A stretch of DNA of 35,489 nt from Stramenopiles sp. TOSAG23-3 (Eukaryota): contig LT642199.1 in assembly GCA_900128585.1 (NCBI GenBank), positions 1-35,489 on the forward strand. Direction: 5' to 3'. Of this stretch, positions 1 to 34,014 are shown one piece after another. The position numbers and the translations under genes are program-made. The notes below the pieces were generated by a model, which was given only the letters and a program-made list of their open reading frames with translations, was not told the origin of the DNA and did no database searches. Position 1 is the stretch's first letter. Each line of letters opens with the position of its first letter.

Positions 1-78
1 AAGAAAGAAAGAAAGAAAGAAAGAAAGAGTCGAAAGAAAGAAAGAAAGAGTCGAAAGAAAGAAAGAAAGAAAGAAAGA
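1..78. repeat. (GAAA)n microsatellite with two GAGTCGA interruptions
   Basis: Directly visible tetranucleotide run; GAGTCGA at 27-33 and 48-54. Confidence 0.95.
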
Positions 79-625
79 ATGATCAGATCACCATCCAACA
101 TCACAGGGAGGAAAAAAGGAGTCATCGTAATATTATATTACAGTACAATAAAAAATTAAAATTAAATAAATCGTAATTAATTAATTATTAAATTAGTGTC
201 TATAATAATTAAAATGTATCGTATTCTCTTACGGTATAATACTATAGTACCACCAGTATATCTGTCTGTTTTTAAAAAAATTAGAAAAGGGGTCTTGAGC
301 GATTTGTGGGAGTGTGTGTTCCTAAAAATAAATTCTTTGTGTAAAATGATTTCGTTAAAGTGTCCTTCTTATCAATTGTTTGAGGATTTGGTACGTACAC
401 ACAATAAAACTTCTGATGAAAAGCCTCCCGGTTAAAGTTTAATACATGTCTGTGCTCAATATTCGTACATTTCCGGTAAAATTAATCATTTTTAAAAATA
501 ATTTATTCATCCGCCGCACCCTGAGCTGCCGGTGTTTCCTTGGCACCCGCCGTTTGAACGCCACCACGTGCTTCCACGTGGCCAGCGAGACGCACGAAGC
601 TCCTTTCCAAAACTTGACCCAATGG

Positions 626-5962: not shown

Positions 5963-6005
5963 AAAAACAAGAAAATTGGCTGTTGTTGTTATTTAAGTAA
6001 TTAAA
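5963..6005 (+). repeat. Dispersed intergenic element, copy 1 (core AAACAAGAAAATTGGCTGT at 5965-5983)
   Basis: Exact 19-mer shared with 26766, 30757 and 33656, followed by TTATTTAAGTAATTAAA as in the 30757 copy. Confidence 0.85.
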
Positions 6006-6240
6006 TATAGCTTCATCATACCCTAATCCTAACTTGGTTCTGTTATAGTATGTTTTATGATATTAAATATCTAATGTTGCAAATTTAGATCAGTTCTACA
6101 ATTGGGATAATCGTTAGAGAGTCTTAAAACATTACACTATGATATATCATTAGTTTTTTTTTTTTTAAATATGTAAATTATCATTTATTTTGCGCACTCG
6201 TATTTCAGACAACTGTAAAAATTCATTCCAACACGCGACT

Positions 6241-9200: not shown

Positions 9201-12200
9201 CGGCTAGACTATCTCGTGCCGCAACCATTGCAAACGCCTCTGGACTCAGGCGACTGGCCACAGGGGAGTCGGACGTTACTACCGCGCTGACGCCCTTTTC
9301 CGCCAACATTTCAGAGATTTGGTTCAACTCCCAGTGCACTTTTTGCAATTGCTGGTGGGCCATCCCTTTCTTCTCCATCACCCGTGCCTCCGCGTTTTGC
9401 AGAAACGAGACGAAGTCCATGTGCGCGGCGTATTGCACGCGGCCTGCTACCCCAGCCATGGTGGTTTTGCTGCTCAATTCGAGGAACTGAGCGTTCATCC
9501 CCAACGCATCGGCGAAATGGGCCCCGCTCTCCACGGCGGCGCAGGCCTCCTTCAACGGCGACTCGTTCGCAACAAAGCCGTTGGGAAGGCCGTCTTTCCC
9601 CTTCGAAGCTCTAATAATACCCTCCTTCATCAGCTGCTTCTCCAACGTCGAAAACAAGGTAGTCCCTCGCGCCAAATTGAGGCACCGGACCACTTTGAAG
9701 GCGCGCGCGTTCTCTACCTTGGCCTTCTTTTCCGCGCCCGAGATCGCGGAGTAATTCCCACGCTCGCTCTCAGCCCTAGTGACGGTCGCATTCAGCCACG
9801 CCTCTACGGTGGCGACGTCGCGCTCAAGCATGGCGCGCTTCATGGTAACCTTTGCCCCACCATCGACCTTTGGAAATTTGGCGTCGACATCCCTCCATTC
9901 GTGGGAGTTCGACGTGGCGATGAACGGCGACCTGGCACTCAACCACGGGTTTCCCTTCGTTTCCAGAAGGCTTTCGTCGTCGCCGTTGAGGATGCCCACG
10001 AGCGGCCCGTCCGCGGTCGCATTTTCTGGGTTCTTTTTCTCCTCCTGTGCTTTCAGGTCCTCCAGGGAAGTCGCGTTCAGGTACTTGCCAAGCCCAGCGC
10101 ATTTGGACTTGACCGAATACGTAAGCCACCCGCAGCCCGCCGGCTTCGCAAACCCGCAGTTCTGGTTCACGTGGACCTGGCTGCGGCCGTTGGCAACGGC
10201 AATCTCGTACGTGCCGACATAGTGCTCGGGCTCGTGGTGAGGGCGCAGGCCAAGGCAGTCCTTCCTATCGCACCCGTACACGTGCATCCAGCACTTCGCG
10301 CCCGCCTTCAACGCTGCGCCCTGGGCCGTCTTCAACGCCGCGGTTTCGTGCCAGATCATGTCTGGGATCGCAGTTCCCATGTCGTTCGTTGCGTTCTTGG
10401 GCGAGTCCGAAAATGTGTAAATGCCGGCCGTCTGCGACGGGTCGTTGGACTGGCAGGAGACGCGAACAACGAGGTCGTCGTCGGCCATGAAGCAGTTGTC
10501 AAACTCGGGCGAACAGGTCTTTCCGACTTGGCCACCCTTGATGAGTGAGATTTCTACCTGGTTTCCCCGATTTTCGCACTTCTTCGCGGTGTGGCTTTTG
10601 TACCGGAACTCGGCCTCCTCTTCCGAGGAAAAGCCGCGAATGCCTGTGGCTCCGGTCGCGCCACCCAAGGCCTGGACGGCTTCGGGGAGGGATTCCTTGA
10701 CCTTTGGCACGAGCGGGATGTTCCCTAAGAGGTCCTTGGTTTTGATCGGGGCCACTTCGTCCTCGAACGTATTGGTCTCTGCAAGTTCTTGCTTGAGCAC
10801 GTTCAGCTTCTCCCTTGCGCAGTCATGCTGGGTGACGCACTCGGACACCTGGGCCCACTTCGCGCGAAGCGTCTCCTGGACCTTCTTGTGGTCGTCTTTG
10901 ATCTTGGTCAGCTTCAGGACGTTCTCCGCGCTGCAGACGGCCGAGCTGGTGCTCCCCCGAACCTCGCAGGCCGCCAAGCGCTCGCTGGCGCGGGTCAGCT
11001 GGCGCCCGTTAGCCTTGAGCTTTTGGGTCAGCTCCTTCCGCTCCGTCGTCTTGCTCAGGAAGCACTGCGCGGCCGCGGCGTCCCCCTTCGAGTCGGCAAT
11101 GGCCTCGCCGGTCATCCGCGTGTACTCGACGCGGACTTTTTCCAGCGTGCGCTTGGCCGCGCGTAGGCGCGCCGCCAGGGCGTCGTCTTCTAGGTGGGAC
11201 AGGTCGCCCTTCTGAAAGGTCGTCCGCATGGTCATGTGGCGCTGGCGCTCGATCTCGGTGTGTAGAGCGACCTCTTGCTTTGTCTTCTGTGCGGTCCACT
11301 TCCCGTGGCAGGCCTCGGCGTCCTTCTGGGCCTTGATGGCGTCCGCCTGGGCGGCGACGAGAGCCTTGCGCTGCGCGGTGAGCTGGTTGTGGTACGCCTC
11401 GCCAGGCTCGCGGCGGGCCTGGTACATCGTTGCGTCCGCGGTGGTGGCCAGCGTCTCGCCGACCTGGGCCAGCTCGTCCATGATGCCCGCCTCGCGGGCG
11501 ACGGCGGCCTTGCGCTTGGCGGCGCAGAGCCGGACCTGGCAGGCCGCGTAGCAGACGGTGTAGTTTCCTAGGGTGGTGACGCTGCACTGGTGGTCGCAGG
11601 AGTCGACCAGGGGGCTGGTATCGTTCCCGAAGTCGACGGTGGGACCCAAGGGCCCCTCCGGCAGCTTCTTTACGCGCTTGGGGGCCGGGGCCTTCCCGAA
11701 CTCGCAGTCCCCGCGCTTGAAGCAGTCCTCCCACTGCTTGCTCTGCTCGAGCTCCTGGCGCTCCCGGGCCTTCTCCTGCTCCTTGACGGCCTGCTCCTCC
11801 CGCTTCTTGAGGGCCTGCTCCTCCCGGCGGCGGCGCTCCTCCTCGGTCATCGGGGCGGGCTGGGGCTTGGGGTGGCGCGGCTTCAGCAGGTGGTGGTAGT
11901 CCGACATGTTGAAGTGCTTGACCTTCGGGGCCGGGGCTTCCTCGGCGTGGTGCTCGCAGCGGCAGGTGAGGAACTCCCCCTCGTTCTCCGCGCGGCAGTA
12001 GCAGATCGCGTGCTCGTACCGGGCGGTCATCTTGGCGATGATGTCCGACATGCGCATGACCTCGTCGGTGGTGACGACCCAGTCCTTGTTCTCGTAAAAA
12101 TAGGCCGTGGTGTTGGTGAACGGCAGGTCGAACCTGAGCTTCGGGACGATGTCCTTGTTCGGCTCGTAGATCAAAAGGGCGTCGGCGGGCTGCCGGTCGA

Positions 12201-12459
12201 CTATTTCCATTTCCGCGTTAATGTTCATTTCGATCCCGCGGGGGGTCGCACTCTTGCGCTCGCTGCTATAATGGTTCTTGTGGATGATGATGCCGTTCTC
12301 CGGCACCACAATCTTCTTGCCCGGCTGCTTTCTACTACTTCTAATATTCGCGTTCAACAAACTATTGACCCGCCTCCGGCCGGCCGTCTCCGAGAGGGCC
12401 GTCGCCGACGCGAGCGTTATTGCCAGCGCGAGGCATAGTACGACTCGTGCCAACGTCAT
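6241..12459 (-). CDS. Large secreted coiled-coil protein with WSC and C-terminal fibrinogen-like domains (2072 aa)
   Basis: Signal peptide MTLARVVLCLALAITLASATA. Long Ala/Glu/Lys coiled coils and Cys-rich patches. WSC pattern MTPDKCAAAC...YAGVKAGKYCVCG...CSMPCAGDAKTACG. Fibrinogen/intelectin-like PKTCKQL...DGIYTI...VYCDMTTDGGGWTL. Uninterrupted 6.2-kb ORF. Confidence 0.85.
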   Translation of the reverse strand: MTLARVVLCLALAITLASATALSETAGRRRVNSLLNANIRSSRKQPGKKIVVPENGIIIHKNHYSSERKSATPRGIEMNINAEMEIVDRQPADALLIYEPNKDIVPKLRFDLPFTNTTAYFYENKDWVVTTDEVMRMSDIIAKMTARYEHAICYCRAENEGEFLTCRCEHHAEEAPAPKVKHFNMSDYHHLLKPRHPKPQPAPMTEEERRRREEQALKKREEQAVKEQEKARERQELEQSKQWEDCFKRGDCEFGKAPAPKRVKKLPEGPLGPTVDFGNDTSPLVDSCDHQCSVTTLGNYTVCYAACQVRLCAAKRKAAVAREAGIMDELAQVGETLATTADATMYQARREPGEAYHNQLTAQRKALVAAQADAIKAQKDAEACHGKWTAQKTKQEVALHTEIERQRHMTMRTTFQKGDLSHLEDDALAARLRAAKRTLEKVRVEYTRMTGEAIADSKGDAAAAQCFLSKTTERKELTQKLKANGRQLTRASERLAACEVRGSTSSAVCSAENVLKLTKIKDDHKKVQETLRAKWAQVSECVTQHDCAREKLNVLKQELAETNTFEDEVAPIKTKDLLGNIPLVPKVKESLPEAVQALGGATGATGIRGFSSEEEAEFRYKSHTAKKCENRGNQVEISLIKGGQVGKTCSPEFDNCFMADDDLVVRVSCQSNDPSQTAGIYTFSDSPKNATNDMGTAIPDMIWHETAALKTAQGAALKAGAKCWMHVYGCDRKDCLGLRPHHEPEHYVGTYEIAVANGRSQVHVNQNCGFAKPAGCGWLTYSVKSKCAGLGKYLNATSLEDLKAQEEKKNPENATADGPLVGILNGDDESLLETKGNPWLSARSPFIATSNSHEWRDVDAKFPKVDGGAKVTMKRAMLERDVATVEAWLNATVTRAESERGNYSAISGAEKKAKVENARAFKVVRCLNLARGTTLFSTLEKQLMKEGIIRASKGKDGLPNGFVANESPLKEACAAVESGAHFADALGMNAQFLELSSKTTMAGVAGRVQYAAHMDFVSFLQNAEARVMEKKGMAHQQLQKVHWELNQISEMLAEKGVSAVVTSDSPVASRLSPEAFAMVAARDSLAAELAHPGEFRFKQSVSVDAKAQAMVQQAAHIDSGDFAMLVNATLSCLCYDEMGSAPSEVAMESTACGPAPTPYPVTSKFHSTPAFPLSHLPPSRNELAERKRAEMRKRVAAVQKKLEEDVKSMTEESQKRAELTTRDMVKAMKELRAKRDALREETEKYKKHVANTIKGDKSKLRKERQDFNSREEEDHKLEEARKKHMRELEKMRQDTLKLEDDLRLRDAKTEEAWRREQDRLDELYISERSRRDKLALGYAQSSEKYKLEIMQKQRSMRGAYESELNKLERLRDEGVSGGMKDLTGDKCKNCDSKKKLRGRVPYVRHAGETASMSPEEMKSEQERETGNRRGSPVAGPNSRFPKFWKYGKSANRFAAVGAPVWIPLPCTGSVIQGSLTLETNCDLRGKVERGEAVRIGRQVFHVRRRGGEFTDKILPLNAPAGTSQVGATVMKLLAGTGSETFGTVEVGCYKETLDRSNSALVTLEGEARDALKEAKDAKDNDVRLQKALKAAEAAKTSLSDSESDKSGDAVTMRTKLKKMEEEVQGLKAAEESSNHRMTEMTEAAKNAKKAAEKAENLLAAKSGGSKTPDDLPVVLPYTAHVAQEDMTPDKCAAACYRQNVNFTYAGVKAGKYCVCGEDMPTADKAPMSSCSMPCAGDAKTACGADNYVMVFNYTVETPPPGLTPDEACAENSPCKRNMTNAKSLLDKERKAVDAQRRKWEEAVVRLARPKTCKQLQGLATGGGDGIYTIFPPEHTTFGAACADDNGNGYSDDCARMYKGTEVYCDMTTDGGGWTLLGYAQHGELSGRLLTTNGKWSPSERKGSANINSLWVVQASESMAYSWNSAYKAAENLESTGSLQSYQKVVKFGIPTPKDQSVAPELHSARNCNDRDSQDSSYFSPVDVTCLKGNCNLPRKMYTGTGTMGVCNGHAYGLVGVPPSKSKCDWSVDAQQGYTSFYVSVDHTPKCAGIVDSKRASGSSDAEIPSVVGIWVR

Positions 12460-13335
12460 CTTTTCTACAACGGCAAGGACGAGCGGCTAGGCTAGCTGAC
12501 ACTACTATTGTGTGCTAAACCAAACGAACCAATTCTTTCCAACAGCAGACTAGACCAGAGATAAAGAAAAAACAACCCGCCCTTCTTCACAAGGATGCTA
12601 CAATACGATTACAGCAACACGAATGAATACAACGAACTAACTCTGTAAAGTGAACGTACTCTCGGACGAGCTAAGCTAACTACTCTAACTCTCACTCTCT
12701 CTCTCTCTGCACTATGTAAAGAACAAAGGACAACTATCTAATCAAGAATCACACACACTGTCTCTCTCTCTCTTTCCAACTTTCTTTCGTGAACAAGACC
12801 ATCTATCTACCTTTCTCTTTATAAAGGTCATTAACTCACTTGGTACCTACCTCACCTACCTAACCTTCATTTTACTTCCTTCACTTCCTCTAATGGATTC
12901 TTTTAAAATTTCTTCTTCTAAAAAGGTCTTTTTGTTCGTAGGATGTTAAAGTAAGCATAGCATTGGAAAAGAGATTCTGAAGGTTAATTATTTAACCCTG
13001 TAATGTCGGTACTGTGTTAGTATAGTATGTATTATGTATTAATGTGATAGGGTTGTTGAAGTATTAAGTACAGTTTATAGTGTTATGATATACAAGTATA
13101 ATTTATATTATATATCCTATGTATATATATTGTTTGTATGTATTAATTAATCTATATTTATATTGTATTGTTAATTTATTATATAAGTACATTGATTGAC
13201 ATCCCCCCCCTTTTTTTAATTTTTAGAATCAATTTCATTCCGTTACCTCTTTCCTTCTTTTTATTTCATTTAATTTAATTTAATTTAAATAGGGAGTTTA
13301 TATAGGAAAGGATGGTTTTATAGATGAGATGAAAT

Positions 13336-13523
13336 AAGGAAGGAAGGAAGTGAAGGAAGGGAAGGAAGTGAAGGAAGGAAGTGAAGGAAGGAAGGAAGGA
13401 AGTGAAGGAAGGAAGGAAGGAAGTGAAGGAAGGAAGGAAGTGAAGGAAGGAAGGAAGGAAGTGAAGGAAGGAAGGAAGGAAGTGAAGGAAGGAAGGAAGG
13501 AAGGAAGTGAAGGGAGGAAGGAA
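13336..13523. repeat. (GGAA)n microsatellite with periodic GT interruptions
   Basis: Directly visible GAAG runs punctuated by GAAGTGAAG. Confidence 0.95.
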
Positions 13524-13948
13524 TTAGTTTTGTTTTTATTATAATTATTTAAATACATATATTCATAGTCTAAATCTACTAAGTCTGAATCGAAATCGAA
13601 ATCGGAAAGCGATGATTAATTCATTCCATTCCATTTTCTTTCTTTCTTTCTTTTTTTATTTATCCAAAAGTTTATTTCATTTTAAACTCCAGCCTATTTA
13701 GGTTCTATCCTATTTTATACGAAGCGACAAAGGAAAGCAAAACCAACCACCCAACCACCCAGAAGAGAAGAGCCGCAGCAATTAATTTTCATTGAAACTG
13801 TACTTATCATTCGTATACTATTAATACATATATCCAATATAATTTATTTTCCACTTAAATACTGTTGATATCTAGCTGTATAGTGTACATATAAATATAT
13901 ATATATAAAATATCATAGCATCAAGATCAAAGCATGATGATTCGACTC

Positions 13949-14019
<71 letters not shown>

Positions 14020-14080
14020 NNNNNNNNNNNNNNNNNNNNNNNNNNNNNNNNNNNNNNNNNNNNNNNNNNNNNNNNNNNNN

Positions 14081-14155
<75 letters not shown>

Positions 14156-14157
14156 TC
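13949..14157. repeat. (CTTT)n microsatellite spanning an assembly gap
   Basis: Pure CTTT runs on both sides of the N block. Confidence 0.95.
14020..14080. other. Assembly gap (61 N)
   Basis: Run of N inside the microsatellite; true length and contiguity are uncertain. Confidence 0.99.
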
Positions 14158-14832
14158 GAAGCTGAAGTAGGTAGGTATAAAATATAATGTAGGGTTATGT
14201 AATAGGGCTGGAGATAAAGGAGACTGGAGAGATAAGAAACTAAGCTACAATTAAGGTATGAACAAATTAGAATTTTGGATGTATGTCTGTTATGTATTTA
14301 TATGCTGTGTGTATATATTTAGAGGTATACTTTTGTTTTCTACTAAAATTATTTTTTAGTTCTATTCCTATATAAGAACTTATTACATTCTAATTTAAAT
14401 ATATCAATTTAAAAATAATTTCATTGAAATCCCATTATAAACAAAACAATCCCTTATCATTAAAAAGGGTATCATTTTAACTCAATATATTTAATTATAT
14501 AATCATATCCTTAACATAAAAACGTACCATCCGCCATCCATTAAACAAAATAAACAAAATAAACAAAAATAATAATAAATAATTTGCTCTTCTCTTCTTC
14601 TTATAGTTAATATAGCAATACCATCATAATACATATGAAGCTGTATAATAAATAATAATAAAATTAAAGAAATAAAAGAAGTCAAGTATTATTATACAAC
14701 ATAAGCACAGCATTAGACTACAACAAAGAAGAAGAAGAGATTGGATTGGATTGGATTCGCAATTAGATTGTGGATAACAGAATTTTACAAATAGTTCGAT
14801 AGACAGATAGTGTAGATAGAGTGACAGATCGT

Positions 14833-21406: not shown

Positions 21407-22938
21407 GGTGGTGATGGGAACGTCTATCTATATTGTACGATATTTGTTCGGTTCTAAACCAACGCAAACCTTCTATGTGCCTTGTCTCTTTCTTCGTATC
21501 GCTTCCACCAATATTAAATCAGTCCCCTCTTCTTTGCCGTTTAATAAATTATCCGTAAACAAAAACATCTATTTTGCAATGTGTAGTCGTATATATTTCT
21601 TTCTCCTATCCTTCAACACGTCTTTCTTCATTTTGTTCGTGGTATTTTGGGGCGGGGGATCTGGTGGTGAAATTATTAACAATCACACATCACACAACAT
21701 CAGATTGTTTTTAAAACTTAATAATTATTTTTTGTTAATAACACATTCTATACTGTGTCCCTTTCACAAATAAAATATTACAGTAATTAAAACAATAAAA
21801 TTCTTCCTCCTTGATGCTGTGCCCATTCATTTTTTTAAATAGAAAGGCTGTATTATATTACAATATGTACACAATATACACAATATATGGTACTTGGTAG
21901 TCCTATCCTATTACTTCTTCTAGAAGAAGAAATAGGACTATTAAATAAAAAAATGTAGGAGCAAAAAATAATAAACAAGTAGGCTAATAATTATTTTTAG
22001 TCGTCTTTATTATAATACCAATATTGTTGTTGAATTATTTGTCATTGTTGAATATAATAAAATAGAATGACTAATTGGATTCTATATTGTCATTATATTA
22101 GTTATATTGTACATTGTATTTTAGTTAAAACAAATCTCCTTTAGCTTTTATATAAAAAAATAGAAAACATAAAAAAATATCTTAATAATGATTTTTTCTT
22201 ATTTTGCGAAGAATATATATTTAGGTTGTTTTTAATACATTCATAATTCTCGTAGACTATACCGGTAATAGCCTAATCCTGAAAAAGAAAACGTCCTTAA
22301 TTATATAATACTACTAAAATTGATGTGAAGCTAATAAAATTAAGTACAAACAAATCTTAACGTTAGCTTTCCAGGTATTGTAATGCTATTTTGATGTTAG
22401 ACTAATTTCATGAACTCTGTAATCAACAACAAAAAGAGCAACGCCAGCATTGAAGGAAAATATTTAATGCTGTGTGAGTGTTAATGTACTGTATAAGAAG
22501 AAAGAAGAGGAGGGTGTTGTTAGTTGTGGTGTGTGGTGCTGGCTGGTGTACGAAGAAAGAACGAAGAAGAATGTTTGTGGGTTTATATTTAAATAAAAAA
22601 ATATAATACTGTAATAAAAATAAATAAAAAAAACAATAATATACGTACAGTAATACAGTAATAAATATGATAAATAAATTTTAAAAAACAAATACGGACA
22701 TAGGATAGAAGACAAACGATGAAAAAAACAGATGAAACGCGTGCTTGGAATGCTAAGGCTTATTTCATTTTCAACAATTCTTACTTTGCATGATTGGGAA
22801 ACATACTAGAACACAAAACTTGCGAAAGTGCACAATACAATCGATAGAACGGTTCAAATTTTTGAGACACTCTTTTGTGGAAGGACTTAGCAACTGAGGA
22901 ATAGGAGACGGGCGATTACTACCCGAACTTTGCTACGA

Positions 22939-25900
22939 ATGAACTCTCCTACAGTTTCGTTTGGTGGCTCTTTGATATTCAAGAGCAAGCCAAACCAAGG
23001 GAAAAAGAAGAAAACAAAAGTAAATGATAAAACTATTGCAAACATAATTTCCGAAGGGTGGGCCCAGCGCATTGCTGAGGCGCGGGCCCTCATCGTTGAA
23101 GAGCTGGGCATCGAGGAGAACACGATCGCGACCGAAGAACTGTTTGCGGCTGCGCTGCAAGATGGATCGTTGTTGTGCAAATTGGCGCAGTCGCTGAGCG
23201 ATTCGCGGGGCTTAAAATTGCAAATTAGGCCATCCAGATCGGCCGCAAACGCCGAAGCTAGGGTGGTTCACCAAAACCTTTCTCGGTTCAGTAGGTTTTG
23301 CCGAGCAATTAATCTCCCCTCGGAAAGCGTTCCTTCCATCCAAGACTTGACGTCGATGCGTTTGAAGCCGTTGGTCACGTGTTTGTGCGACATCAAACGC
23401 TTGAAAGAAAACGACAACTTTATTGTGTATGCGGCCACATGGGAAGCGTTCTGCACTCCAAAAAAATCTGGATCCGGCTCTCCATTCTCAAAATCCAAAA
23501 GCGGGGTGAAATCCACCCTAAAAATGGCAATTGAGAATTCCATTACAAAATCAGAAAAAATGAAGTCAGGGGGGAGCATCATGCAGGCGCTTCGGGAATC
23601 GGGGCAAGTTGTTCCCGGGTTGTTTTCATCAAGCCCTGCGGCTATGTTTCATTTAAGCGCGAGAAAGCACCTCCAGACTTCTTCCGCAATCAAAGAAGAG
23701 GGAGGCGCCCCAGAATTCAACGGAGATGGTGTCACAGAAAACCTGCTGAAATCATTGAACAAAGTCGAAGAGAAGGCAAAGTTGACAAGCGACAACAGGG
23801 TGCTTGAGGACAAATTAGAAGAAGCGCTAATGGAAATCGAAACTTTGAAAGCACTGGTGTCCCAAAAAGACCAAGGTATCGAAGTTATGAAGGCTGAGTG
23901 CAAAGAGGCGGTACATGGAATACAGGCAAAGCGAGATGAACTTAAACTTGCTACAAAAACGGTCAACGCAAGTGTGAGTGTTCTGGAATCGAAGGAAGCT
24001 GAAATTAATACCTGGACGCAGAAGTACCATAGTGCAGTTGCGCTTCACGCCAAAGAAAAGAAGGAAATTATTGAAACCCACGATTTGGAAATCCAGAAGT
24101 TAAAAGACACGTTGACTGCGAGCGAGAAAAATGTCGATAACCTCGTCGTCGAACTCTCGGAAACGAAAATGCGAGAGTCTGAATTGACAAAGAAGGTGAA
24201 AGACCTCTCGTATGACGTGGAAGAGCATGTTGAGCAGAACCGAGAGCATGTTGCTGCACTGAAAGATTTAACGTCCCAAAACAAGAAGATGAGCAACATT
24301 TTGGACTCTACGTTTCAGTTGAATAAAAGCGCCATGCTAAAGACAAAGGTGAGGTTTCAGGGAATGCAAAATTCATACGGTGCACTGAAAGATACCGTTC
24401 GCTCACAGTTGGCAGCCATCAAAAACGACTTCAACGGAGTTGGACGGACGTTGATCCAGAAATGCCAAGTGGCGGATGCCGAAAAAAAGGAGGTAGTTGA
24501 AAATTATGAGCGTGAGATTGAGTCGCGACGGAAAGTATTCAACGAACTTCAACGGCTCCGAGGTAATATTCGTGTTCTCTGCAGAGTCCGACCACTCGAC
24601 TCTGAAAGCGACAAAGGTACAATCAAATTCCAAGATAACGAAAACATGTTCATTTCTCCATCCGAGACAGGGCGCGCAAAACATTTTGAGTACGATACCA
24701 TCTTTCGACCATCCTCCACACAAGAGCAGGTGTACAAAGAAGTGTCTCCAATGGTTCAATCTTCCATGGACGGTTTTCATTCCTGCATCTTTGCTTACGG
24801 TCAAACTGGTTCCGGTAAGACGTACACTATGCAAGGGCCAAAATCGGACCCGGGGGTATACACGAGGTCGCTGAAAGAGCTCTTCCTGATTCAAGAGCAA
24901 AGAAAAAGCACGCACAATTACAAAATTTGCGTCAGCATGGTTGAAATTTATAATGAAAAAATCAGAGATCTATTGGCCCCACCGTCAAGCCTAAACGATG
25001 GGCCGACTCTTCTTGAGATCAAGCGCGGCAAATCTGGTAACTATTTGCCAAATGCCAACGTTATGCAAGTGAACAGCATTGACGACATCCACCGCGCAAT
25101 GGCCCGCGGCGAAGAAAACCGTTCTGTTGGTGCCACCAAAGCGAACGAACACAGCAGCAGATCGCACTGTTTGTTAATTATTACCACCGATGGCGAAGAA
25201 ATGGAGAGTGGCTCGGTCATGCACGGTCGGTTGGTACTGGTTGATTTGGCGGGTTCGGAACGGGTTGGGAAAACGGATGCGCAGGGGGAACGGTTGAGAG
25301 AGGCAAAGAACATCAATAAGTCCTTGTCAGCGTTGGGCAACGTAATCAACGCGTTATCGAACAAACAAAACCATGTGCCCTTCCGAGACTCCAAACTAAC
25401 TTACTTGCTGCAGGACTCTCTTTCCAAAGACAACAAGGTCTTAATGATTGCACAAATAAGCCCCAGTTGTGCTGATTACCAGGAGTCTGTGTGCTCTTTG
25501 GACTTTGCTGGCCGCGCCCGAGGGGTACAGTTGGGAGGCGCCAAAGCCAAGACCCAAAACATGGAGCTGCCACGTTTGCAAGCGCAGTTAAAAAAAGCCA
25601 AAGAGCAGCTAGATACCCAAAATGATAAGATGAAAGGATTTGTGGAAATGAGGCGGTCGATTAAGAAAATGGAAAAGGAGAATGACGCTCTCCAAGAGAA
25701 GTTGGAGTCGTTGGAGGCAAATAATCAAAACTCAAACCGGGGCATGAAGGAAATAAACAGTGCAATGGTGGAAAAGCAGGCCGCGTGCAGAGCCCTTGAG
25801 AAAAAGCTGGTGGACTCCAAGAAGCAAATCTTTTCCATGAAAGAAAAACTTCACACTTGTGAGTCGAAACTCTCTGCGTCTGAGAAACTTGTGGGGACAA

Positions 25901-26622
25901 TGAAAGAGAAAGTACAAACGTGTGAAACACGCTTACGAAAAGCCGACAAAAACGTCGAAACGTTGGAAAAAGAGCTGGCCCAAAGGTCGGTGACGACCCC
26001 CATCAATAGCAGAACTAAAAGTTCAACCAGAAGCTCGTCCAAAAAAAGCGTCTCGCGAAGTGCGACCAGAAGCGCACCCCGCAGCGCCCCCAAAACTTCA
26101 AATAAAGTTACGTCGGCTCGAAAAAGTGGGAAAAAACGAAAGAGTGAAAGTCCTCCCAGCGACAGGCCAACCAAAGAAAGCAAGTCGATATCCGGCATTT
26201 TGAAAGCATCCAGTTCTCAGCAAGAGGCAACGAAATCAACCAAGCGCGTAAATTTCAATAATGAACTTTCTGTAAAAGAACTATCGTTCGATGAGGACTC
26301 CTTTCCTCTTTCGCCAAGTGCAGAAAGTAATGGAACCAGAGAGGAAACCCCTGCAAAGAAAAAAGTGGCTTCAATTTTATTGTCTGGTCGTGCCCAAAAC
26401 ACTGTTCCAGAAAACGAAGAGAATTCGATGACGACTCGCCAAAAGGAATTGGAAGAGTGGCGAAAGCGAAAAGGGCGCGCCGCTCCAAAACGGAAGGGGC
26501 TGATGGGCGGGGCCACCAGGGTAAAGCAACCCACAAAATCTTCCCGAAAGCCCCTTCGGACGCGGTCAACAGCCCTTAGTAGCAGTAGAAACGCTGCCCG
26601 ATCTTCCTGCCGGTGGAATTGA
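22939..26622 (+). CDS. Kinesin-14 with N-terminal calponin-homology domain and internal motor flanked by coiled coils (KCH-like layout)
   Basis: CH-like segment FAAALQDGSLLCKLAQSL...QNLSRFSRFCRAINLP...IQDL...LVTCLCDI. Kinesin-14 neck RRKVFNELQRLRGNIRVLCRVRP, then YGQTGSGKT, NEHSSRSH, DLAGSER, HVPFRDSKLT. First ATG at 22939. Confidence 0.92.
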   Translation: MNSPTVSFGGSLIFKSKPNQGKKKKTKVNDKTIANIISEGWAQRIAEARALIVEELGIEENTIATEELFAAALQDGSLLCKLAQSLSDSRGLKLQIRPSRSAANAEARVVHQNLSRFSRFCRAINLPSESVPSIQDLTSMRLKPLVTCLCDIKRLKENDNFIVYAATWEAFCTPKKSGSGSPFSKSKSGVKSTLKMAIENSITKSEKMKSGGSIMQALRESGQVVPGLFSSSPAAMFHLSARKHLQTSSAIKEEGGAPEFNGDGVTENLLKSLNKVEEKAKLTSDNRVLEDKLEEALMEIETLKALVSQKDQGIEVMKAECKEAVHGIQAKRDELKLATKTVNASVSVLESKEAEINTWTQKYHSAVALHAKEKKEIIETHDLEIQKLKDTLTASEKNVDNLVVELSETKMRESELTKKVKDLSYDVEEHVEQNREHVAALKDLTSQNKKMSNILDSTFQLNKSAMLKTKVRFQGMQNSYGALKDTVRSQLAAIKNDFNGVGRTLIQKCQVADAEKKEVVENYEREIESRRKVFNELQRLRGNIRVLCRVRPLDSESDKGTIKFQDNENMFISPSETGRAKHFEYDTIFRPSSTQEQVYKEVSPMVQSSMDGFHSCIFAYGQTGSGKTYTMQGPKSDPGVYTRSLKELFLIQEQRKSTHNYKICVSMVEIYNEKIRDLLAPPSSLNDGPTLLEIKRGKSGNYLPNANVMQVNSIDDIHRAMARGEENRSVGATKANEHSSRSHCLLIITTDGEEMESGSVMHGRLVLVDLAGSERVGKTDAQGERLREAKNINKSLSALGNVINALSNKQNHVPFRDSKLTYLLQDSLSKDNKVLMIAQISPSCADYQESVCSLDFAGRARGVQLGGAKAKTQNMELPRLQAQLKKAKEQLDTQNDKMKGFVEMRRSIKKMEKENDALQEKLESLEANNQNSNRGMKEINSAMVEKQAACRALEKKLVDSKKQIFSMKEKLHTCESKLSASEKLVGTMKEKVQTCETRLRKADKNVETLEKELAQRSVTTPINSRTKSSTRSSSKKSVSRSATRSAPRSAPKTSNKVTSARKSGKKRKSESPPSDRPTKESKSISGILKASSSQQEATKSTKRVNFNNELSVKELSFDEDSFPLSPSAESNGTREETPAKKKVASILLSGRAQNTVPENEENSMTTRQKELEEWRKRKGRAAPKRKGLMGGATRVKQPTKSSRKPLRTRSTALSSSRNAARSSCRWN

Positions 26623-26752: not shown

Positions 26753-26795
26753 CACGTTAACATAAAAACAAGAAAATTGGCTGTCACGTTAACAT
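26753..26795 (+). repeat. Dispersed element copy 2 (26764-26784) flanked by 11-bp direct repeat CACGTTAACAT
   Basis: CACGTTAACAT-AAAAACAAGAAAATTGGCTGT-CACGTTAACAT read directly. Confidence 0.88.
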
Positions 26796-26812: not shown

Positions 26813-28493
26813 TTACCTGTACATTCTCCGCAACCGTAAGTCTTCAATCCCAAGGGTATACGCAACGCCAAAACTGGGCTCTAAATTAATTACCGCGTGC
26901 GCCCAGCCTGCTGGGATGTAAAGAGCCTCACCTGTATGCTGCACGACTTCTAATGGCCGAATTGGCAGAGACGGGTAGTATACGTTTAACCATGTTCGCA
27001 TATCACATACACCAGGTCCATAGTAAGCCCTTGGAGGCAGTAAATACCACTTTTTCGTCCCTCCTAAAAGAACATTAAGCGCAGACTGATGGAAGTGAAA
27101 GTACGTGCCCGAACCCGCAAAGCCCACGTAAAAAAGAGGCAAAATTTTTTCATTCGTTTGGAAAGTTCCATAACGTCTGCTCGGGAAGTATGATTCCAAA
27201 AAGGCAGGGTCTAATGCGTCCAAGATCGAAGAGTCGTTTGCAATGGGGCCAAAAATATACTCGTCGCGCAGTTTTCCAACGTCGGGTTGCCCGTCTAAAA
27301 AATTCGAAACAGTAGTTCTATTTTGGAAAAAAAGTGCGTTGCCGGCGGCAGCATGGTCGCAATCAAAACCATTTATCACGGGCATAGTCCTGCAATCTTC
27401 AACCCACTGGCGGGGAACAATGTCTGTTGATGAGCTTACTGATACCACTTGAGACCCTACTTCACTAATTAATTTCTCTAAGCTCCATTGGAATGACCCA
27501 GACAGTAGCCCGGGAAACACGACGGGTTTGCCTAGTAAGCTGTATCCATTCCAAAATACTTCTTTAGGCGGCAGCGATGCAAGGCTTTCAATATGCGATT
27601 TGCTTTCCAACACGAGGTTTTCCCCAAAGTAATCTGTTATTGCGGTGTACCTGTTTGGAACAATGCGGGCTTTCGTATTTGCTACGGGGGGCAATGCTGC
27701 ACCGAGAAGGACTTCTTTCGCATACGGTGTAACAGCATCGGTAATGTAGGTACATTTTCCGGGCCGAGCTTCGGAGTCAACGTACTCCAAAACACAGGAT
27801 TCAACGACGTTTCGATACAAATATTCCGCAAGCACATTGTCCTCTGCCCCCCCCCCCTTTATCTTTCATATACGCAATGTAGAGCTTTAGGCTGGCCTTT
27901 ACTTGGTTAACATCCGGAAATTGCTGGATCACCACCTCTGCCAGGTTGAATTTCTCTGCAACGTCATAGGCCGCAAGCTCTATAATTTCACGTAGGAGCT
28001 TTACCCAGTTCGCGGGAGTGATGCCTTGCGGGTTGCGCATGACATCTGTCGCCACCAGATTGGCTAAGCTCATACGAGATCTAATAATGTTTCCCTCTAA
28101 TTTTTGTTGTGAAATCTTAATCAGTTTGTCTTTAAATGATGGCTCAAATGTACTGCTGCTAGAGACGCTTGACTGTCGCACTTGGTCCAGCAAACTTTTG
28201 ATGCTGTCAACTATTGTGTTCAATTTCTTGTTGCCTTCTATCTCTGGTGTGCTATATATACGGTTCAGTTTGTTTAACGTTTTCTCTAGGACATAAGCCG
28301 CGTCATAAAAGTAGCCATCCCGAGACATGTCCTCGGCGAATGACAGAATCGTCGAAATCCTCTCTGTTTGCATGGAAACATTGTTTATAGCACCGGAAGA
28401 AAGCGGGCTGTGGGCGCGCGTGTCATGGTTTCCCAAACAAGAGAAGAAAACAAACCAAAAGACCCCGACACTGCAGACCAGCACTATCCTCAT
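26813..28493 (-). CDS. Secretory-pathway JmjC (cupin) oxygenase, JMJD8-like; apparent frameshift at G11 run (27847-27857)
   Basis: Upstream ORF (27801-28493) has a signal peptide and helical region. Downstream ORF has GSGTYFHFH...GTKKWYLLPP...QHTGEALYIPAGWAHAVINLE and its ORF-track start is GTG. Removing one G joins them as KDKGGGAEDNVLAEYLY (559 aa). Confidence 0.8.
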
Positions 28494-29338: not shown

Positions 29339-30685
29339 ATGAGGGTCTCCACTGTTCCTTCTTCCCTTCGTAGAGTTGGTTGGGCCAGCTGTGCTCGGCG
29401 TGCCGCTTTCAGCTCTGACGCTGCCCGTCGCCCGCCCACGGCGTGGCCGAGCCAGGAGGACATCAAGAAGAGTGCTTCCCCTCATTGGCGCGAGGAAGCT
29501 ACAGACGATTTGGTGCTTTTGGGGAGGAAGGCCATAGGGAACAAAAAGTTTAAAGTCGGAATAGAGTGTTTCAAAGAGTCTGTCGAACTGTTGAAACGCA
29601 GCGAAACCCATTCTCAATTCCTCGCCACTGCGACCCCCTCTGCGAGAAACAGTCTGAATGCCCTGGGGGTAATGAGATTAATTTGCGGTGATATTTCGCA
29701 GGCAACACAACTCCTAGAAGACGCCCAGCGTGCGCAAGACAGCATATCGGAATCTGGAATGGGTGACGACAATTTTTGCGATCGGGCTGGCTTGCTGAAC
29801 GACAGGGCAATCCTGCACGCATACAAGGGAGAGATGGACGAATCAGAAAAGCTACTGAAGCAATGCTACTACATGGTGAGCAGGGCGTACCGCCCTTCCA
29901 ACCGCGCTATTGCGGCGTGTTTAGGAAACCTCGGCGAGATCAATTGTATAAATGGAGACTTCAAAGTGGCTGTAAGGAATTTTGAAAAAGCGTTGTTCCA
30001 ATTGCAGAAAGATGATGGAAACAAAAACAGCTTTCTTGACATCCTACACTCGAACGTTCAGGTTAAGCTGATGGCAAGCATGGGGAAGGCAACCAGGATG
30101 CAGGCGACAGACCCAGAGTGCGTGAAAAAATGCCGAACGTTGCTGAACGATGCTCGCATTAGTCTAGAGGGGGGGCTACTCGCAGGAAATGCCGACATGT
30201 CAGGGGAGGGCATTGACCAGGAATCGGAGGTGGACCGTGTGTATATAACGTCGCAGGAAGGCAGTTGTGACGCAGCTTCCGGAGATTACGTTGCTGCGTC
30301 GCAACACTTTCTGCGCGCCTTCGAAATTTCTAGAGAACTGAACAAGGCCGGTTTGGAAATGCCTGATTTTCATTTAATTTGTGAAAATAACCTCGCTATT
30401 TTTTCCGACAACGTAGAAACCGCCCAGTCTCGGATAAAGGTGTGCATGCGGAGCCATGGAAATACGAGCTCAAAACTGACTAAGGCCATTGAGCACAACC
30501 ATAGGGTCATATTTGGTGACAGCATTGGTGGGGAAAGCGCGGCAGTCGATTCTGGCCAAGCAGAAAGGCTAGGCTTGCCTGGAGAAAAAGTCGTCTACCA
30601 ATTGAACCACCCTAGCTTTATATTTGGATTCGGTGTTGTGGCCAATCAACGCCCATCCGAATTCTCGATGTTGAAAGCGTCATGA
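29339..30685 (+). CDS. TPR-like repeat protein with probable mitochondrial targeting peptide
   Basis: Arg/Ser/Ala-rich N-terminus (...CARRAAFSS). Helical repeats SLNALGVMRLICGD, LLNDRAILHAYKGE, CLGNLGEINCINGDFKVAVRNFEKAL. Confidence 0.75.
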   Translation: MRVSTVPSSLRRVGWASCARRAAFSSDAARRPPTAWPSQEDIKKSASPHWREEATDDLVLLGRKAIGNKKFKVGIECFKESVELLKRSETHSQFLATATPSARNSLNALGVMRLICGDISQATQLLEDAQRAQDSISESGMGDDNFCDRAGLLNDRAILHAYKGEMDESEKLLKQCYYMVSRAYRPSNRAIAACLGNLGEINCINGDFKVAVRNFEKALFQLQKDDGNKNSFLDILHSNVQVKLMASMGKATRMQATDPECVKKCRTLLNDARISLEGGLLAGNADMSGEGIDQESEVDRVYITSQEGSCDAASGDYVAASQHFLRAFEISRELNKAGLEMPDFHLICENNLAIFSDNVETAQSRIKVCMRSHGNTSSKLTKAIEHNHRVIFGDSIGGESAAVDSGQAERLGLPGEKVVYQLNHPSFIFGFGVVANQRPSEFSMLKAS

Positions 30686-30756
30686 TCCCATTGCTATAAT
30701 CATATCAAACAACAAATTTGCTATATTTCCTTGATGATAGTCAATATTTTTTATTT

Positions 30757-30817
30757 AAACAAGAAAATTGGCTGTTATTTAAGTAATTAAAATTTATGTA
30801 CTGCGAGAACTGCGAAC
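30757..30817 (+). repeat. Dispersed element copy 3 (extended form)
   Basis: 19-mer core plus TATTTAAGTAATTAAA and ATGTACTGCGAGAACTGCGAAC, homologous to 33656-33718. Confidence 0.85.
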
Positions 30818-31108
30818 TTTTTTCTTTATCATAATTAGGAATAATAATGTTTGTTGCTGCCTGGTTTTTGCTGAATGCTGCTTCCTGCTTCCTTGGCTTT
30901 GGTTGGTCTAACCCCCGCCCTCAACAACAACAACGACGACGAACGACGATGCGACGACGATAATAATAAAAAAAAAAGATACGAGGAGGGAGGATAACCA
31001 ATAAGAAGCAAGAAGAAGAAAGGAAGAAGAAGAAGATTAAAATTATTATAATAATAAAAATAAAAAATAATAATAATAATGAAGAAGAAGTAATACCTTG
31101 GTACTTCT

Positions 31109-31133
31109 TTAAATAACTGCCAATTTTTCGTTT
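31109..31133 (-). repeat. Dispersed element, degenerate inverted copy
   Basis: Reverse complement reads AAACGAAAAATTGGCAGTTATTTAA versus consensus AAACAAGAAAATTGGCTGTTATTTAA. Confidence 0.65.
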
Positions 31134-31313
31134 TTTAAAGTACGGTACATAATTAAAAAAAGAAGCGAATCTGCTGTGAATCTTGAGTGCCAAACAACTT
31201 TATTTCAAAGCCTGCAATTTATAGATACTTCGCGTTTGATTGTCATAGTTCGCATTGACATCGTTTTCCCCAAGCGTGTATACAGTTGCTACCCGTGGCT
31301 ACGCAGATAAACC

Positions 31314-33545
31314 ATGGAAGCGGAAGATATTCTATACGCCGAAGGCGTTTACCGAAGTTTCGCTGAACTCCCTACCATTACTGGCGGTGTGATGACGAAA
31401 ACAAAAGACGGTTCAAACGTGAAAATATCCCTTACAAAGAATCAGAAAGATGTTGTAAACAACAGCAAGAATAAACTGTTGAGCGAATTCTATGTCTCTA
31501 CTCAGACGCCGAGTTTAATTGTCGAACCTACCCTATTTCCACTTTCGCCCAAAACGGTCCTTCACTTGCCTTCTCCAACTGGTAAGTTTTCCCTTAGACT
31601 TATAAAAGAAGACAGTGACAAGAAAGGTGGCAGCGACGGCCCTAATTTTGTGTTTGAAATATACGACCGTTCCGGGAGACTCCACCGCGTAGAATCCCAG
31701 GGCGTTCATGGTCAAGTATTCTTAGGCCACCCATTTGGCTCTGTCGTCTGGTCGCCTTGTGAAACCAAAATCGGCTACGTTGCGGAGCGAAAGAAGAAAG
31801 ACAGGCTGAAGCTGTTTTCCCAGGACAAAGACGCAAAGAGTGGCGAGGATGGGGTAAACGGAATGCGGAGTGAGTTTGAATACGAAGACGATTTTGGCGA
31901 ACAAATGAACGGTGCTCAACAGCCAGTGCCGTTTATTATTGATTTGGGCAAGGCCAAAGTGACGATTCAACCGGTCAACATTTCCGAAGAGTTTAGCACG
32001 CTAGCGTTTGGTCAGTTTCAGTTTACCCCCAAGAACGACCTTGTCGTTGCTGTAGGATGGAGAACGACCCCGAGGCGGTTCGGCATAATCTACTACAACA
32101 CAAGGCCCTCCAAACTGTACATGTTCAACGTTAAGGGGCCGCCAGCAACGAAATGCATTACCCCGAATGAGGAGGATTACAGCGTTTGCAACCCGCGTTT
32201 TTCACCTAGCGGTGCCAACCTGGCGTATCTTACGACGCGGAAAACAGCCGTGCACAACTCTTGCAGTTGCTTGAGACTGGTCCCATGGAAGAGCGTGCTA
32301 GAGACAGATAATGCAGCACCAGAAACAATTATTGATTATGTTGAAGTACCGAATGGTCCAGGCGGGTTTTGTGGTCTGTTTGACCAAGGCACATGGCCCA
32401 AACAACCTTTCTTGAACGAGGAGACCATCATCTTCTCCTCGTTGCACCGTTCTATATTAAAAATCTGCTGCGTCAATCTTGCCACTAAAGCGCTATCGAC
32501 GATGCCACTCCCATTGGCACTCGAGGCGAACGAAACGGTCGGTTATTGCGCAAGTGCGCTCTTTGCGCGCGACAATACCGTTCTCTGGAAGTTTAACCGG
32601 CCGAACTGTCCCGACAGATGCTTTGTGTCCCAGTTTGGCGAAGAAGGTGGCGTCCAGCACCTCGAGATTTCCCGGGAGAAATGCAGGTCAGCCCTTCCAT
32701 CGCACAGAATATTTTCAATGGAGAAAGATGGAATGGTACTGGAAGGCCTGCTCTCGTTGCCCTCTAACGGGGGTGACAAACTACCCCCGTTGATTCTGTC
32801 CCCACACGGAGGGCCGCACAGTGCAACAATGTCCAGTTTTAACGCGACCATATGCACGCTGAACCACTTGGGGTTCGCCGTTTTGCAGGTAAACTACAGG
32901 GGATCCTTAGGGTATGGGCTCCGTTCTCTCGAAAGTTTGCCTGGAAAAGTTGGAAGGCAAGACGTTGACGATTGCATGTCTATATTAAACGAGGCCTTGC
33001 AAAGCGGTGAGTGTAGCAAAAGCGAGGTCTTTGTGCTTGGGGGTTCCCACGGTGGTTTCTTAACAGGTCATTTAATCGCACAGTTTCCGGACAGGTTTCG
33101 CGCAGCAGCGGCTCGAAATCCTGTACTAAACATGGCGGGAGAGTTTGTTGCGACGGACATTCCAGACTGGTGCCACGTGGAGGCTGGCACGGGGGTAGAC
33201 GTTGTGAATGACGGACTCCCGTACGTGCCAACACCGCAAATTTACTCGTTGCTGTATGAGACCAGCCCCATCTCTTTGGTAAACAGTGTGAAAACCCCGT
33301 TGATGCTGATGGTAGGTGGTGCGGATATTCGAGTCCCATGGGCCCAGAGCTTTGATTTCTTTCACATACTAAGGTCCAAAGGCGTCCCAGTGAAACTCTT
33401 GGCGTACCCGAAAATGCAGCATGCGCTGGCCGACTTTTCTCGAGAAGAGGCCGACGTTTGGATAAACGTTATCATGTGGTTCAGCAAGTTCGTGAAGGAG
33501 AGGGGTGACCTTGACCCAAATTTTTGCACAGCTCGTGCCCTCTAG
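31314..33545 (+). CDS. APEH: Acylamino-acid-releasing enzyme (acylpeptide hydrolase, S9C)
   Basis: N-terminal propeller (VWSPCETKIGYVAERKK, EYEDDFGEQM), PHGGPHS, VNYRGSLGYG, nucleophile GGSHGG, RNPV...TDIPDW, Asp in GGADIRVP, His in MQHAL. Confidence 0.95.
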   Translation: MEAEDILYAEGVYRSFAELPTITGGVMTKTKDGSNVKISLTKNQKDVVNNSKNKLLSEFYVSTQTPSLIVEPTLFPLSPKTVLHLPSPTGKFSLRLIKEDSDKKGGSDGPNFVFEIYDRSGRLHRVESQGVHGQVFLGHPFGSVVWSPCETKIGYVAERKKKDRLKLFSQDKDAKSGEDGVNGMRSEFEYEDDFGEQMNGAQQPVPFIIDLGKAKVTIQPVNISEEFSTLAFGQFQFTPKNDLVVAVGWRTTPRRFGIIYYNTRPSKLYMFNVKGPPATKCITPNEEDYSVCNPRFSPSGANLAYLTTRKTAVHNSCSCLRLVPWKSVLETDNAAPETIIDYVEVPNGPGGFCGLFDQGTWPKQPFLNEETIIFSSLHRSILKICCVNLATKALSTMPLPLALEANETVGYCASALFARDNTVLWKFNRPNCPDRCFVSQFGEEGGVQHLEISREKCRSALPSHRIFSMEKDGMVLEGLLSLPSNGGDKLPPLILSPHGGPHSATMSSFNATICTLNHLGFAVLQVNYRGSLGYGLRSLESLPGKVGRQDVDDCMSILNEALQSGECSKSEVFVLGGSHGGFLTGHLIAQFPDRFRAAAARNPVLNMAGEFVATDIPDWCHVEAGTGVDVVNDGLPYVPTPQIYSLLYETSPISLVNSVKTPLMLMVGGADIRVPWAQSFDFFHILRSKGVPVKLLAYPKMQHALADFSREEADVWINVIMWFSKFVKERGDLDPNFCTARAL

Positions 33546-33655
33546 GTAGCATTTATTATGGTAGGCGGGCTGACTGTGTTTAATTTAGGAATTGAGGAGA
33601 AAAGAAAGAAAAAAACCTTATTTTTGTTTCTAGATATGATATCTAAATTAATTAA

Positions 33656-33718
33656 AAACAAGAAAATTGGCTGTTATATTTATAAGTAATTAAATTAATG
33701 TACTACTGCGAACTGAAC
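33656..33718 (+). repeat. Dispersed element copy 4 (extended form)
   Basis: 19-mer core, then TAAGTAATTAAA and ATGTACTACTGCGAACTGAAC. The sub-motif ATGTACTGCGAACTGA recurs at 33760-33775. Confidence 0.85.
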
Positions 33719-33848
33719 TCTAAATTTAGACATTCGACATTCGAGGTTTACATTCCTTCATGTACTGCGAACTGATCTTTGCTCTTTTGGTGTTACTAAT
33801 CGATATACCCTTGTCACTTAGTGTTGACTATCATTCTCAGGTGTACTC

Positions 33849-33984
33849 CATGCATGATCTGAATCCTATTATAAGAATCCCAAGAGTAAGTGTAAAAAAA
33901 CCTATGATAATTCATTTTATCTAAATTTATACTTCGTAGTAAATGTAATAACGGGATCGACATTACCGATTCGGATCATGCATG
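33849..33984. repeat. 17-bp inverted repeat with 102-nt spacer
   Basis: CATGCATGATCTGAATC (33849-33865) versus GATTCGGATCATGCATG (33968-33984): 16/17 Watson-Crick pairs plus one G-U. Confidence 0.8.
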
Positions 33985-34014
33985 ACTTAAAAAATAACAG
34001 CCAATTTTTTGTTT
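33985..34014 (-). repeat. Dispersed element, inverted copy
   Basis: Reverse complement reads AAACAAAAAATTGGCTGTTATTTTTTAAGT. Confidence 0.8.

Follow-up and report, generated by a model that had tools for sequence, protein, structure and literature searches.

How does a 21-nt sequence come to stand between two identical 11-mers in the spacer of a convergent gene pair? The question arises at positions 26753–26795 of the window, the whole 35,489-nt stretch of DNA that was analysed, where the letters run 11-mer, 21-mer and identical 11-mer exactly as an earlier sequence-only reading had claimed. The features of the site are these.

26753–26763, + strand: left copy of the probable 11-bp target-site duplication (TSD), CACGTTAACAT, ending at the presumed first-strand nick
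26764–26784, − strand: 21-nt insert, AAAAACAAGAAAATTGGCTGT on the + strand and ...ACAGCCAATTTTCTTGTTTTT on the minus strand
26785–26795, + strand: right 11-bp copy of the probable TSD, CACGTTAACAT, 18 nt from the stop of the JmjC/cupin ORF
26813–27835, − strand: JmjC/cupin ORF, stop codon at 26813–26815

The insert sits in a 190-nt spacer between the convergent ORFs 22930–26622(+) and 26813–27835(−). The second of these overlaps another ORF on the same (−) strand, 27801–28493, which has no Pfam match, and a single gene may have been divided here by an intron, a frameshift or an assembly error. The window is eukaryotic, with long, intron-free, G+C-rich ORFs and A+T-rich spacers, and its ORF products include two kinesins, a dyskerin-type pseudouridine synthase, ankyrin and EF-hand proteins, and WSC, JmjC and prolyl-oligopeptidase-family proteins. 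Near-identical sequence is present in many marine metagenome and metatranscriptome runs, and the host is therefore an uncultured or little-studied marine protist. Long GAAA/GGAA-type microsatellites (window 1–90 and 13300–14165) and an N-run near 14020–14080, placed in an A+T-rich spacer of 2.4 kb, mark the window as a draft scaffold.

Our analysis supports, with high probability, the identification of the 21-mer as an extremely 5′-truncated insertion of a LINE-like (non-LTR) retrotransposon and of the 11-bp repeat as its TSD. Insertion of the LINE type is most likely because flanking repeats are in excess, because one end of the copies is constant and the other variable, and because longer copies are continuous with a multicopy ORF that is reverse-transcriptase (RT)-like. 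Positions 26764–26784 are most likely the final 21 nt of the retroelement RNA, with the + strand as first-strand cDNA.

Copies of the motif in the window

With up to three mismatches allowed, the 21-mer has four matches in the window, all on the + strand, compared with none in 100 shuffled windows. It is exact at 5963, 26764 and 33654 and carries two mismatches at 30755. The 11-mer occurs in the window only at its two flanking positions (26753–26763 and 26785–26795), a uniqueness that is weak when taken alone, as with one mismatch allowed at least two matches arise anywhere in 11 of 100 shuffled windows. The chance of flanking repeats was accordingly judged by swapped-flank and shifted-flank controls and not by the 11-mer count. 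Searching with a tail profile brings the number of window copies to six, of which four are on the + strand and two, both diverged, on the − strand (5963–6005+, 26764–26785+, 30757–30791+, 33654–33694+, 34014–33985− and 31127–31109−). Those beyond the 26764 insert are given here with the strand of the RNA sense.

5963–6043, − strand: subfamily (b) copy of ~81 nt, comprising the tail, in which 6 additional nt (TGTTGT) follow the 21-mer, and a portion of the 3′ UTR
30757–30819, − strand: subfamily (a) copy of ~63 nt, internally deleted between two ACTGCGAAC repeats
33654–33865, − strand: subfamily (a) copy of ~212 nt, extending from the tail through the 3′ UTR to the first codons of the ORF end
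33961–34014, + strand: diverged copy in opposite orientation, with the tail joined straight to ORF-end sequence (short-UTR variant)
31102–31136, + strand: degenerate tail-only copy in opposite orientation, ~180 nt upstream of ORF 31314–33545

The 5963–6043 copy is placed between the convergent genes 3034–5889(+) and 6241–12459(−), the 30757–30819 copy begins 72 nt past the stop of ORF 29339–30685(+), and the 33654–33865 copy begins 109 nt past the stop of ORF 31314–33545(+). The diverged copy at 33961–34014 has a possible 8-nt flanking repeat, CATTTACT.

Two further sequence features accompany these copies. The 3′ UTR of subfamily (b) contains a telomere-repeat-like CCCTAATCCTAAC, at 6019–6031 in the window and also in the metagenome loci L022, L025, L043 and L105. 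A second short repeat family with the core ...AAACAAATTATATAGTATGTTTTAAGACTCTC... forms an inverted pair at 6040–6150 of the window and occurs in loci L012, L020, L092, L103, L115 and L120; in L103, ~25 nt of it lie inside a subfamily (a) tail. Since its minus strand also ends in ...TTTGTTTTT, this second family may represent a related element's tail.

Ends, flanking repeats and positions of the copies

An exact-match scan of metagenome contigs with an 18-base core of the motif yielded at least 132 stretches, and the matches listed give 153 instances with the window included, or 149 without duplicates. The statistics that follow thus describe metagenome contigs, possibly from several related organisms, and not the window's own genome. 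One viral-contig match, L001, was rejected as a copy, being a chance match in GC-rich coding sequence.

All copies, among the matches listed and in the window, share the constant end (A)AAACAAG... and vary at the other. The sequence-only reading had likened the minus strand to a 5′-truncated copy ending in oligo-T, and this proved apt, since it is the oligo-T side that is constant and the other side that is variably cut back. The A-run before CAAG is 5 nt long in 63 and 4 nt long in 40 of 148 listed copies, and T precedes it in 123 of the 148; the target side of the junction, on the + strand upstream of the copy, mostly ends in A or T among the matches listed. In the other direction, the letters after ...GGCTGT are T, A and T in 132, 133 and 126 of 141 listed copies, followed in most by a common stretch of ~16 nt. 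The window copy at 26764 instead reads CAC, and homology does end where the second repeat begins, as had been noticed. It is one of few copies, among the matches listed and in the window, to end directly after the core. Further downstream the listed copies diverge: at least two main continuations, termed (a) and (b), can be told apart, and there are others besides. Subfamilies (a) and (b) agree exactly over the last ~37 nt, with UTRs that are otherwise unalignable, so that this tail is probably the recognition element of the enzyme. Beyond the shared tail a third continuation exists (...TATTTTATAGTAATTAAAATTAAAGAAAAAAGAAGG..., loci L008, L048, L104 and L112), which suggests further element families with the same 3′ tail.

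Flanking repeats were sought by searching the 25 nt before each copy against the 200 nt after it. Repeats of at least 11 nt were found at the junction flank in 27 of 124 listed copies, against 29 of 2459 combinations with flanks swapped between copies, and repeats of at least 9 nt in 40 of 124 against 134 of 2459. Among the 118 listed copies with enough upstream sequence, same-locus flanks shifted upstream by 30, 60 and 90 nt gave repeats of at least 11 nt in 2, 1 and 0 cases, compared with 26 at the junction, and repeats of at least 9 nt in 7, 2 and 1 cases, compared with 39. Unique direct repeats of 9–15 nt thus bracket inserts among the 124 copies, drawn from the listed matches and the window, as expected of the staggered-cut insertion that had been proposed for the site. 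In 31 events among the matches listed the repeats comprise 10–15 nt of unique sequence, each sequence being different, and duplication length is therefore variable. A clear repeat of at least 10 nt is present in only about a quarter of the listed copies; the others may be old, have short duplications or be of other origin. Repeat-bracketed inserts measure 19, 21 (window), 24, 25, 25, 25, 25, 27, 32 ... 150, 171 ... 192 nt among the matches listed. Tabulating flanking repeats and truncation points over the copies, as the sequence-only reading had proposed, therefore returned an excess of repeats over controls and a continuum of truncation.

That reading had also named the case that would undo it, a one-off local duplication (considered here as slippage) or an assembly artefact confined to 26753–26795. 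In favour of this, the draft scaffold has an N-run near 14020 and only one window copy a perfect long repeat. Thirty other independent places, on contigs of several assemblies, nevertheless show this architecture, and to a single local accident we give almost no credence. A cut-and-paste DNA transposon, of which the insert would be a footprint or a MITE-like miniature with its TSD, is also highly improbable. Direct repeats flank the insert as such an element would have them, and other short repeat families in inverted arrangement lie nearby. Against it, repeat length ranges from 9 to 15 nt and is not fixed, there is one constant end only with no terminal inverted repeat seen, and the longer copies hold a one-directional ORF with its stop 110–185 nt from the constant end.

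Several loci bear on how single insertions arose. L024 reads target, 25-nt insert, target, 29-nt insert, target; the two inserts differ, which indicates that a single nick site was used twice. Target and short insert alternate in tandem in L024, L009, L047, L111 and L100, as if a regenerated target had been hit repeatedly. In L033 a 19-nt reversed tail with a 6-nt duplication lies within a subfamily (a) copy, and the other (a) copies, four of four, have no interruption at this point and so represent a paralogous empty site. Among the fetched metagenome loci, none matched the window over at least 250 nt or contained the 11-mer. Five locus pairs overlapped over at least 450 nt, three of them near-identical (at least 99%) and two sharing common repeat copies, and none of the five displayed presence and absence of an insert.

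The copies are placed unevenly with respect to genes. Among the 87 listed copies with enough upstream sequence, a same-strand ORF ends 0–311 nt upstream in 56, an opposite-strand ORF is faced in 17 and neither applies in 14. Both flanks are available for 68 listed copies; the neighbouring genes are convergent in 34 of these and divergent in 3, and the copies are therefore biased towards 3′–3′ spacers and away from promoters. Tandem pairs divide into 13 (opp,opp) and 5 (same,same) arrangements among the matches listed. From the window alone it had seemed that a tag would always be directed away from the closest stop codon, an idea that fails in these tandem pairs; some of the (opp,opp) assignments may be remnants of the element's own ORF. 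Accumulation in 3′ intergenic regions could reflect a preference for A/T-rich T(T/A)AA sites or selection against insertions in promoters.

This placement, with 56 of 87 listed copies behind a same-strand ORF end and half of the 68 in convergent pairs, is also what recommends a different origin for the motif, as a cis-element of the host that selection maintains at gene ends (a terminator or 3′-processing signal), with the 11-bp repeat a local duplication or a chance occurrence. Read in the direction of the upstream gene, the full tail moreover includes the hexamer ATTAAA. A host signal nevertheless seems very unlikely, given flanking repeats about 20-fold above controls, continuity of the motif with a multicopy ORF, copies that occur in both orientations and nested in one another, and a 21-nt window copy that is without the ATTAAA part. 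Co-option of the tags by the host may still have followed as a secondary event.

Source ORF and candidate enzymes

The furthest-reaching copies of subfamilies (a) and (b) run into a conserved reading frame on the minus strand, whose stop lies ~110 nt from the constant end in (b) and ~185 nt in (a). The sense of this ORF identifies the window minus strand as RNA-sense, so that the RNA finishes 3′ with ...CAGCCAAUUUUCUUGUUUUU at the constant end, and the variable end represents truncation on the 5′ side. The conserved peptide of the ORF end is the C-terminus of P0002, a protein of 776 aa with 116 members at 90% identity, and tblastn places this C-terminus beside the tail in L025, L043, L032, L107, L105, L120 and L003. 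P0002 has 265 relatives (E ≤0.001) among 1.84 billion representatives, all of them short fragments, and no longer relatives of its residues 1–420 were found. In P0077, a fatty-acid elongase/type III PKS-like host domain (FAE1_CUT1_RppA, Pfam, E 4.9e-80) is fused to a fragment of the element ORF, probably through a 5′-truncated insertion at or in the end of a host gene.

Continuity with this ORF also bears on the template of the short copies. They could be retro-copies of a separate small RNA mobilised in trans, such as a polymerase III transcript with a U-run end or a 3′ piece processed from the element mRNA, and not abortive copies of full-length mRNA. The minus strand ends in TTGTTTTT, which resembles a polymerase III terminator, and the last ~37 nt are common to otherwise unrelated continuations. 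Most copies are very short as well: homology extends no more than 60 nt from the constant end in 65 of 123 listed copies and no more than 100 nt in 101, by a measure that over-extends in A/T-rich flanks. The truncation points are, however, continuous from 19 to more than 200 nt with no discrete size class, the longer copies enter the ORF without a break, and the window has no tRNA and no Rfam match to suggest the tRNA-, 7SL- or 5S-derived head of a SINE. Nor was a structure predicted for the tail RNA, with z-scores of +1.22, +1.06, −0.66, +1.79 and +1.51. A separate small-RNA template is thus unlikely. Of the earlier suggestion of a 5′-truncated copy of a small RNA, the truncated RNA copy stands, while the small RNA gives way to an mRNA whose longer copies cross the 3′ UTR into the C-terminus of the RT-like ORF.

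The P0002 cluster has a member of 1689 aa, P0158, on a 5554-nt contig. Its sequence contains GIRPIAIGE, DAKNAFNS, QQGDPIG, AFADDLNIV and LLGIPI in that order, which, reading by eye, we take to be the RT motifs 2, A, B, C and E of LINE-type enzymes in canonical order. P0158 may on these motifs be called a reverse-transcriptase-like protein, and it would be expected to possess RT activity. Profile and sequence searches with Pfam, NCBIfam and the PDB gave no RT match for P0158, P0157 or the excised RT stretch. For the element proteins, Pfam returned nothing except a sub-threshold zf-primase match and sequence and profile searches of the PDB nothing meaningful, and no relatives of P0157 were present in genome contigs or viral contigs. 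In the ESM Atlas, 30 unnamed clusters were found, the nearest named one having zf-RVT in 17% of its members (score 0.87), which serves as a lead only. The RT stretch folded alone from a single sequence reached a pLDDT of 36.8 and was unusable, and an alignment of 150 fragments was set aside as too ragged. P0158, the near full-length element protein, is annotated in its source as hypothetical and assigned to a metagenome bin of a gammaproteobacterium; its contig is probably eukaryotic and binned with bacteria.

About 1100 aa follow RT motif C in P0158. Roughly 600 aa past the motif there is a Cys/His-rich stretch, after which the conserved columns H...ED, KR and E.WDV.F appear, the first of them within I.C.S.G...H...ED. 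A model of this region from a 43-sequence alignment (pLDDT 61.4) has the order alpha-beta-beta-beta-alpha-beta. Foldseek found no match to the model at E ≤0.001. The best VIA-align comparison, a weak one, was with the Bax1 endonuclease (Z 3.5, rmsd 2.7, 71 residues aligned), and 12 of 37 rows were restriction enzymes or endonucleases by title, none of them at Z 5. A putative restriction-like endonuclease in the C-terminal region of P0158 is therefore plausible. LINEs with such an enzyme (R2, R4, NeSL, Utopia) have a zinc-finger motif and a PD-(D/E)xK nuclease C-terminal to the RT, and no APE endonuclease at the N-terminus. At E ≤0.1, P0158 has no Pfam match to an APE endonuclease (Exo_endo_phos) or to any other family, and this absence of APE is weak evidence because Pfam also misses the RT domain.

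Insertion model and known systems

Our results suggest a molecular model for how so short a sequence may be inserted as a unit, of which we infer the nicking step, the priming step and the type of endonuclease. The element endonuclease would nick the + strand after ...AACAT, in an A/T-rich context of the T(T/A)AA kind. The freed 3′-OH would then serve as primer for copying the RNA from its T/U-rich 3′ end (...CAGCCAAUUUUCUUGUUUUU), element transcripts being expected to end at ...CUUGUUUUU, and the target's own A residues may sometimes share in pairing with the U-rich tail. An A/T-ending target side together with an A-run junction fits such target-primed reverse transcription. At 26753–26795 synthesis would have aborted after 21 nt were copied, and a cut in the second strand 11 nt upstream, followed by fill-in, would have duplicated the 11-mer; across copies the stagger would be 9–15 nt. 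The element tail is T/U-rich and not poly(A). The sequence-only reading had considered a mechanism that seeds a very short fixed sequence at gene ends to be unusual. Its kind is not, as LINE-type target-primed reverse transcription with 5′ truncation is well known; the shortness of the products is. The family itself appears undescribed, and no description of this element was found in the literature, where one may nevertheless exist.

On this LINE-type reading, a conserved gene-end motif of an uncultured marine eukaryote is in all likelihood transposon debris and not a host signal, and inserts of 19–25 nt with an intact duplication exemplify a minimal product of retrotransposition. A multicopy protein family of 1689 aa would also have escaped profile libraries as a candidate reverse transcriptase, and in protist metagenome bins the element protein may otherwise be annotated as hypothetical or misassigned, as with P0158 and its bacterial label. 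More ambitiously, the family may represent a deeply divergent retroelement lineage, with a Pfam-invisible RT, U-rich-tail priming and a restriction-like nuclease, in which habitual abortive reverse transcription seeds thousands of 20–60 nt tags in 3′ intergenic regions. Such tags, with their fixed 21–37 nt between convergent genes, might then have been co-opted for termination, 3′-processing or small-RNA targeting. To this larger picture we would give only a small chance.

Among known systems, L1-type LINE insertions have a constant 3′ end, variable 5′ truncation, duplications of ~7–20 bp and an A/T-rich nick site. The copies described here share the constant 3′ end, the variable truncation, duplications of variable length and an A/T-rich nick site. 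They differ from L1 in having no poly(A), the tail being ...CTTGTTTTT, so that the primer ends in A or T as a mirror image of L1. Pfam also detects no APE endonuclease domain in P0158, and L1 inserts are usually much longer.

R2 has far fewer residues after RT motif C than the ~1100 aa of P0158. Utopia, NeSL and R2 elements are characterised by a zinc finger, RT, zinc finger and restriction-like endonuclease architecture (PMC4640811). P0158 would resemble these proteins in its single ORF with a candidate RT in the middle followed by a Cys/His motif and a putative nuclease, and its copies resemble theirs in a precise 3′ and a variable 5′ boundary. These elements are mostly site-specific in the same description (rDNA, U2 and spliced-leader genes), whereas the copies here occupy many sites, the 31 duplications among the matches listed all being different sequences.

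Site-specificity is not universal among LINEs with a restriction-like endonuclease, as illustrated by EhLINE1/EhSINE1 of Entamoeba histolytica, a LINE with a restriction-enzyme-like endonuclease that inserts without targeting in the account taken from PMC1635306. That paper also gives TSDs (22 bp in its figure 1), a preference for intergenic A/T-rich DNA and a 3′ tail rich in T, for which pairing with A-rich target DNA is proposed (PMC1635306). Among the systems compared here, the Entamoeba pair is the closest working analogue, its T-rich tail matching the T/U-rich tail and A-ending primers found here. This likeness is one of description. The copies here are mostly tail-only fragments of 20–100 nt, and the nick context is T(T/A)AA for an endonuclease that is putative, versus GCATT as given for EhLINE1 (PMC1635306). 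In RTE-clade LINE/SINE pairs, too, a 3′-end sequence is held in common, with priming and cleavage linked to the tail (PMC6007223). The 3′-terminal sequence common to otherwise different elements is thus a shared feature on that description. RTE elements are characterised there by microsatellite-like tails and an APE-type endonuclease, in contrast to the unique tail of ~37 nt that occurs here in two LINE subfamilies.

Short degenerate retroposon pieces at gene 3′ ends of a compact protist genome are also reminiscent of SIDERs. SIDERs are ~0.5 kb long. The copies here, unlike SIDERs, keep the 3′ tail. Many of them are apparently young, as their duplications are intact, and SIDERs are extinct elements of Leishmania 3′ UTRs with regulatory roles shown (PMC2323293, PMC5689007). 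If the tags affect 3′-end formation of convergent genes, they would provide a parallel to the Leishmania SIDERs in another protist.
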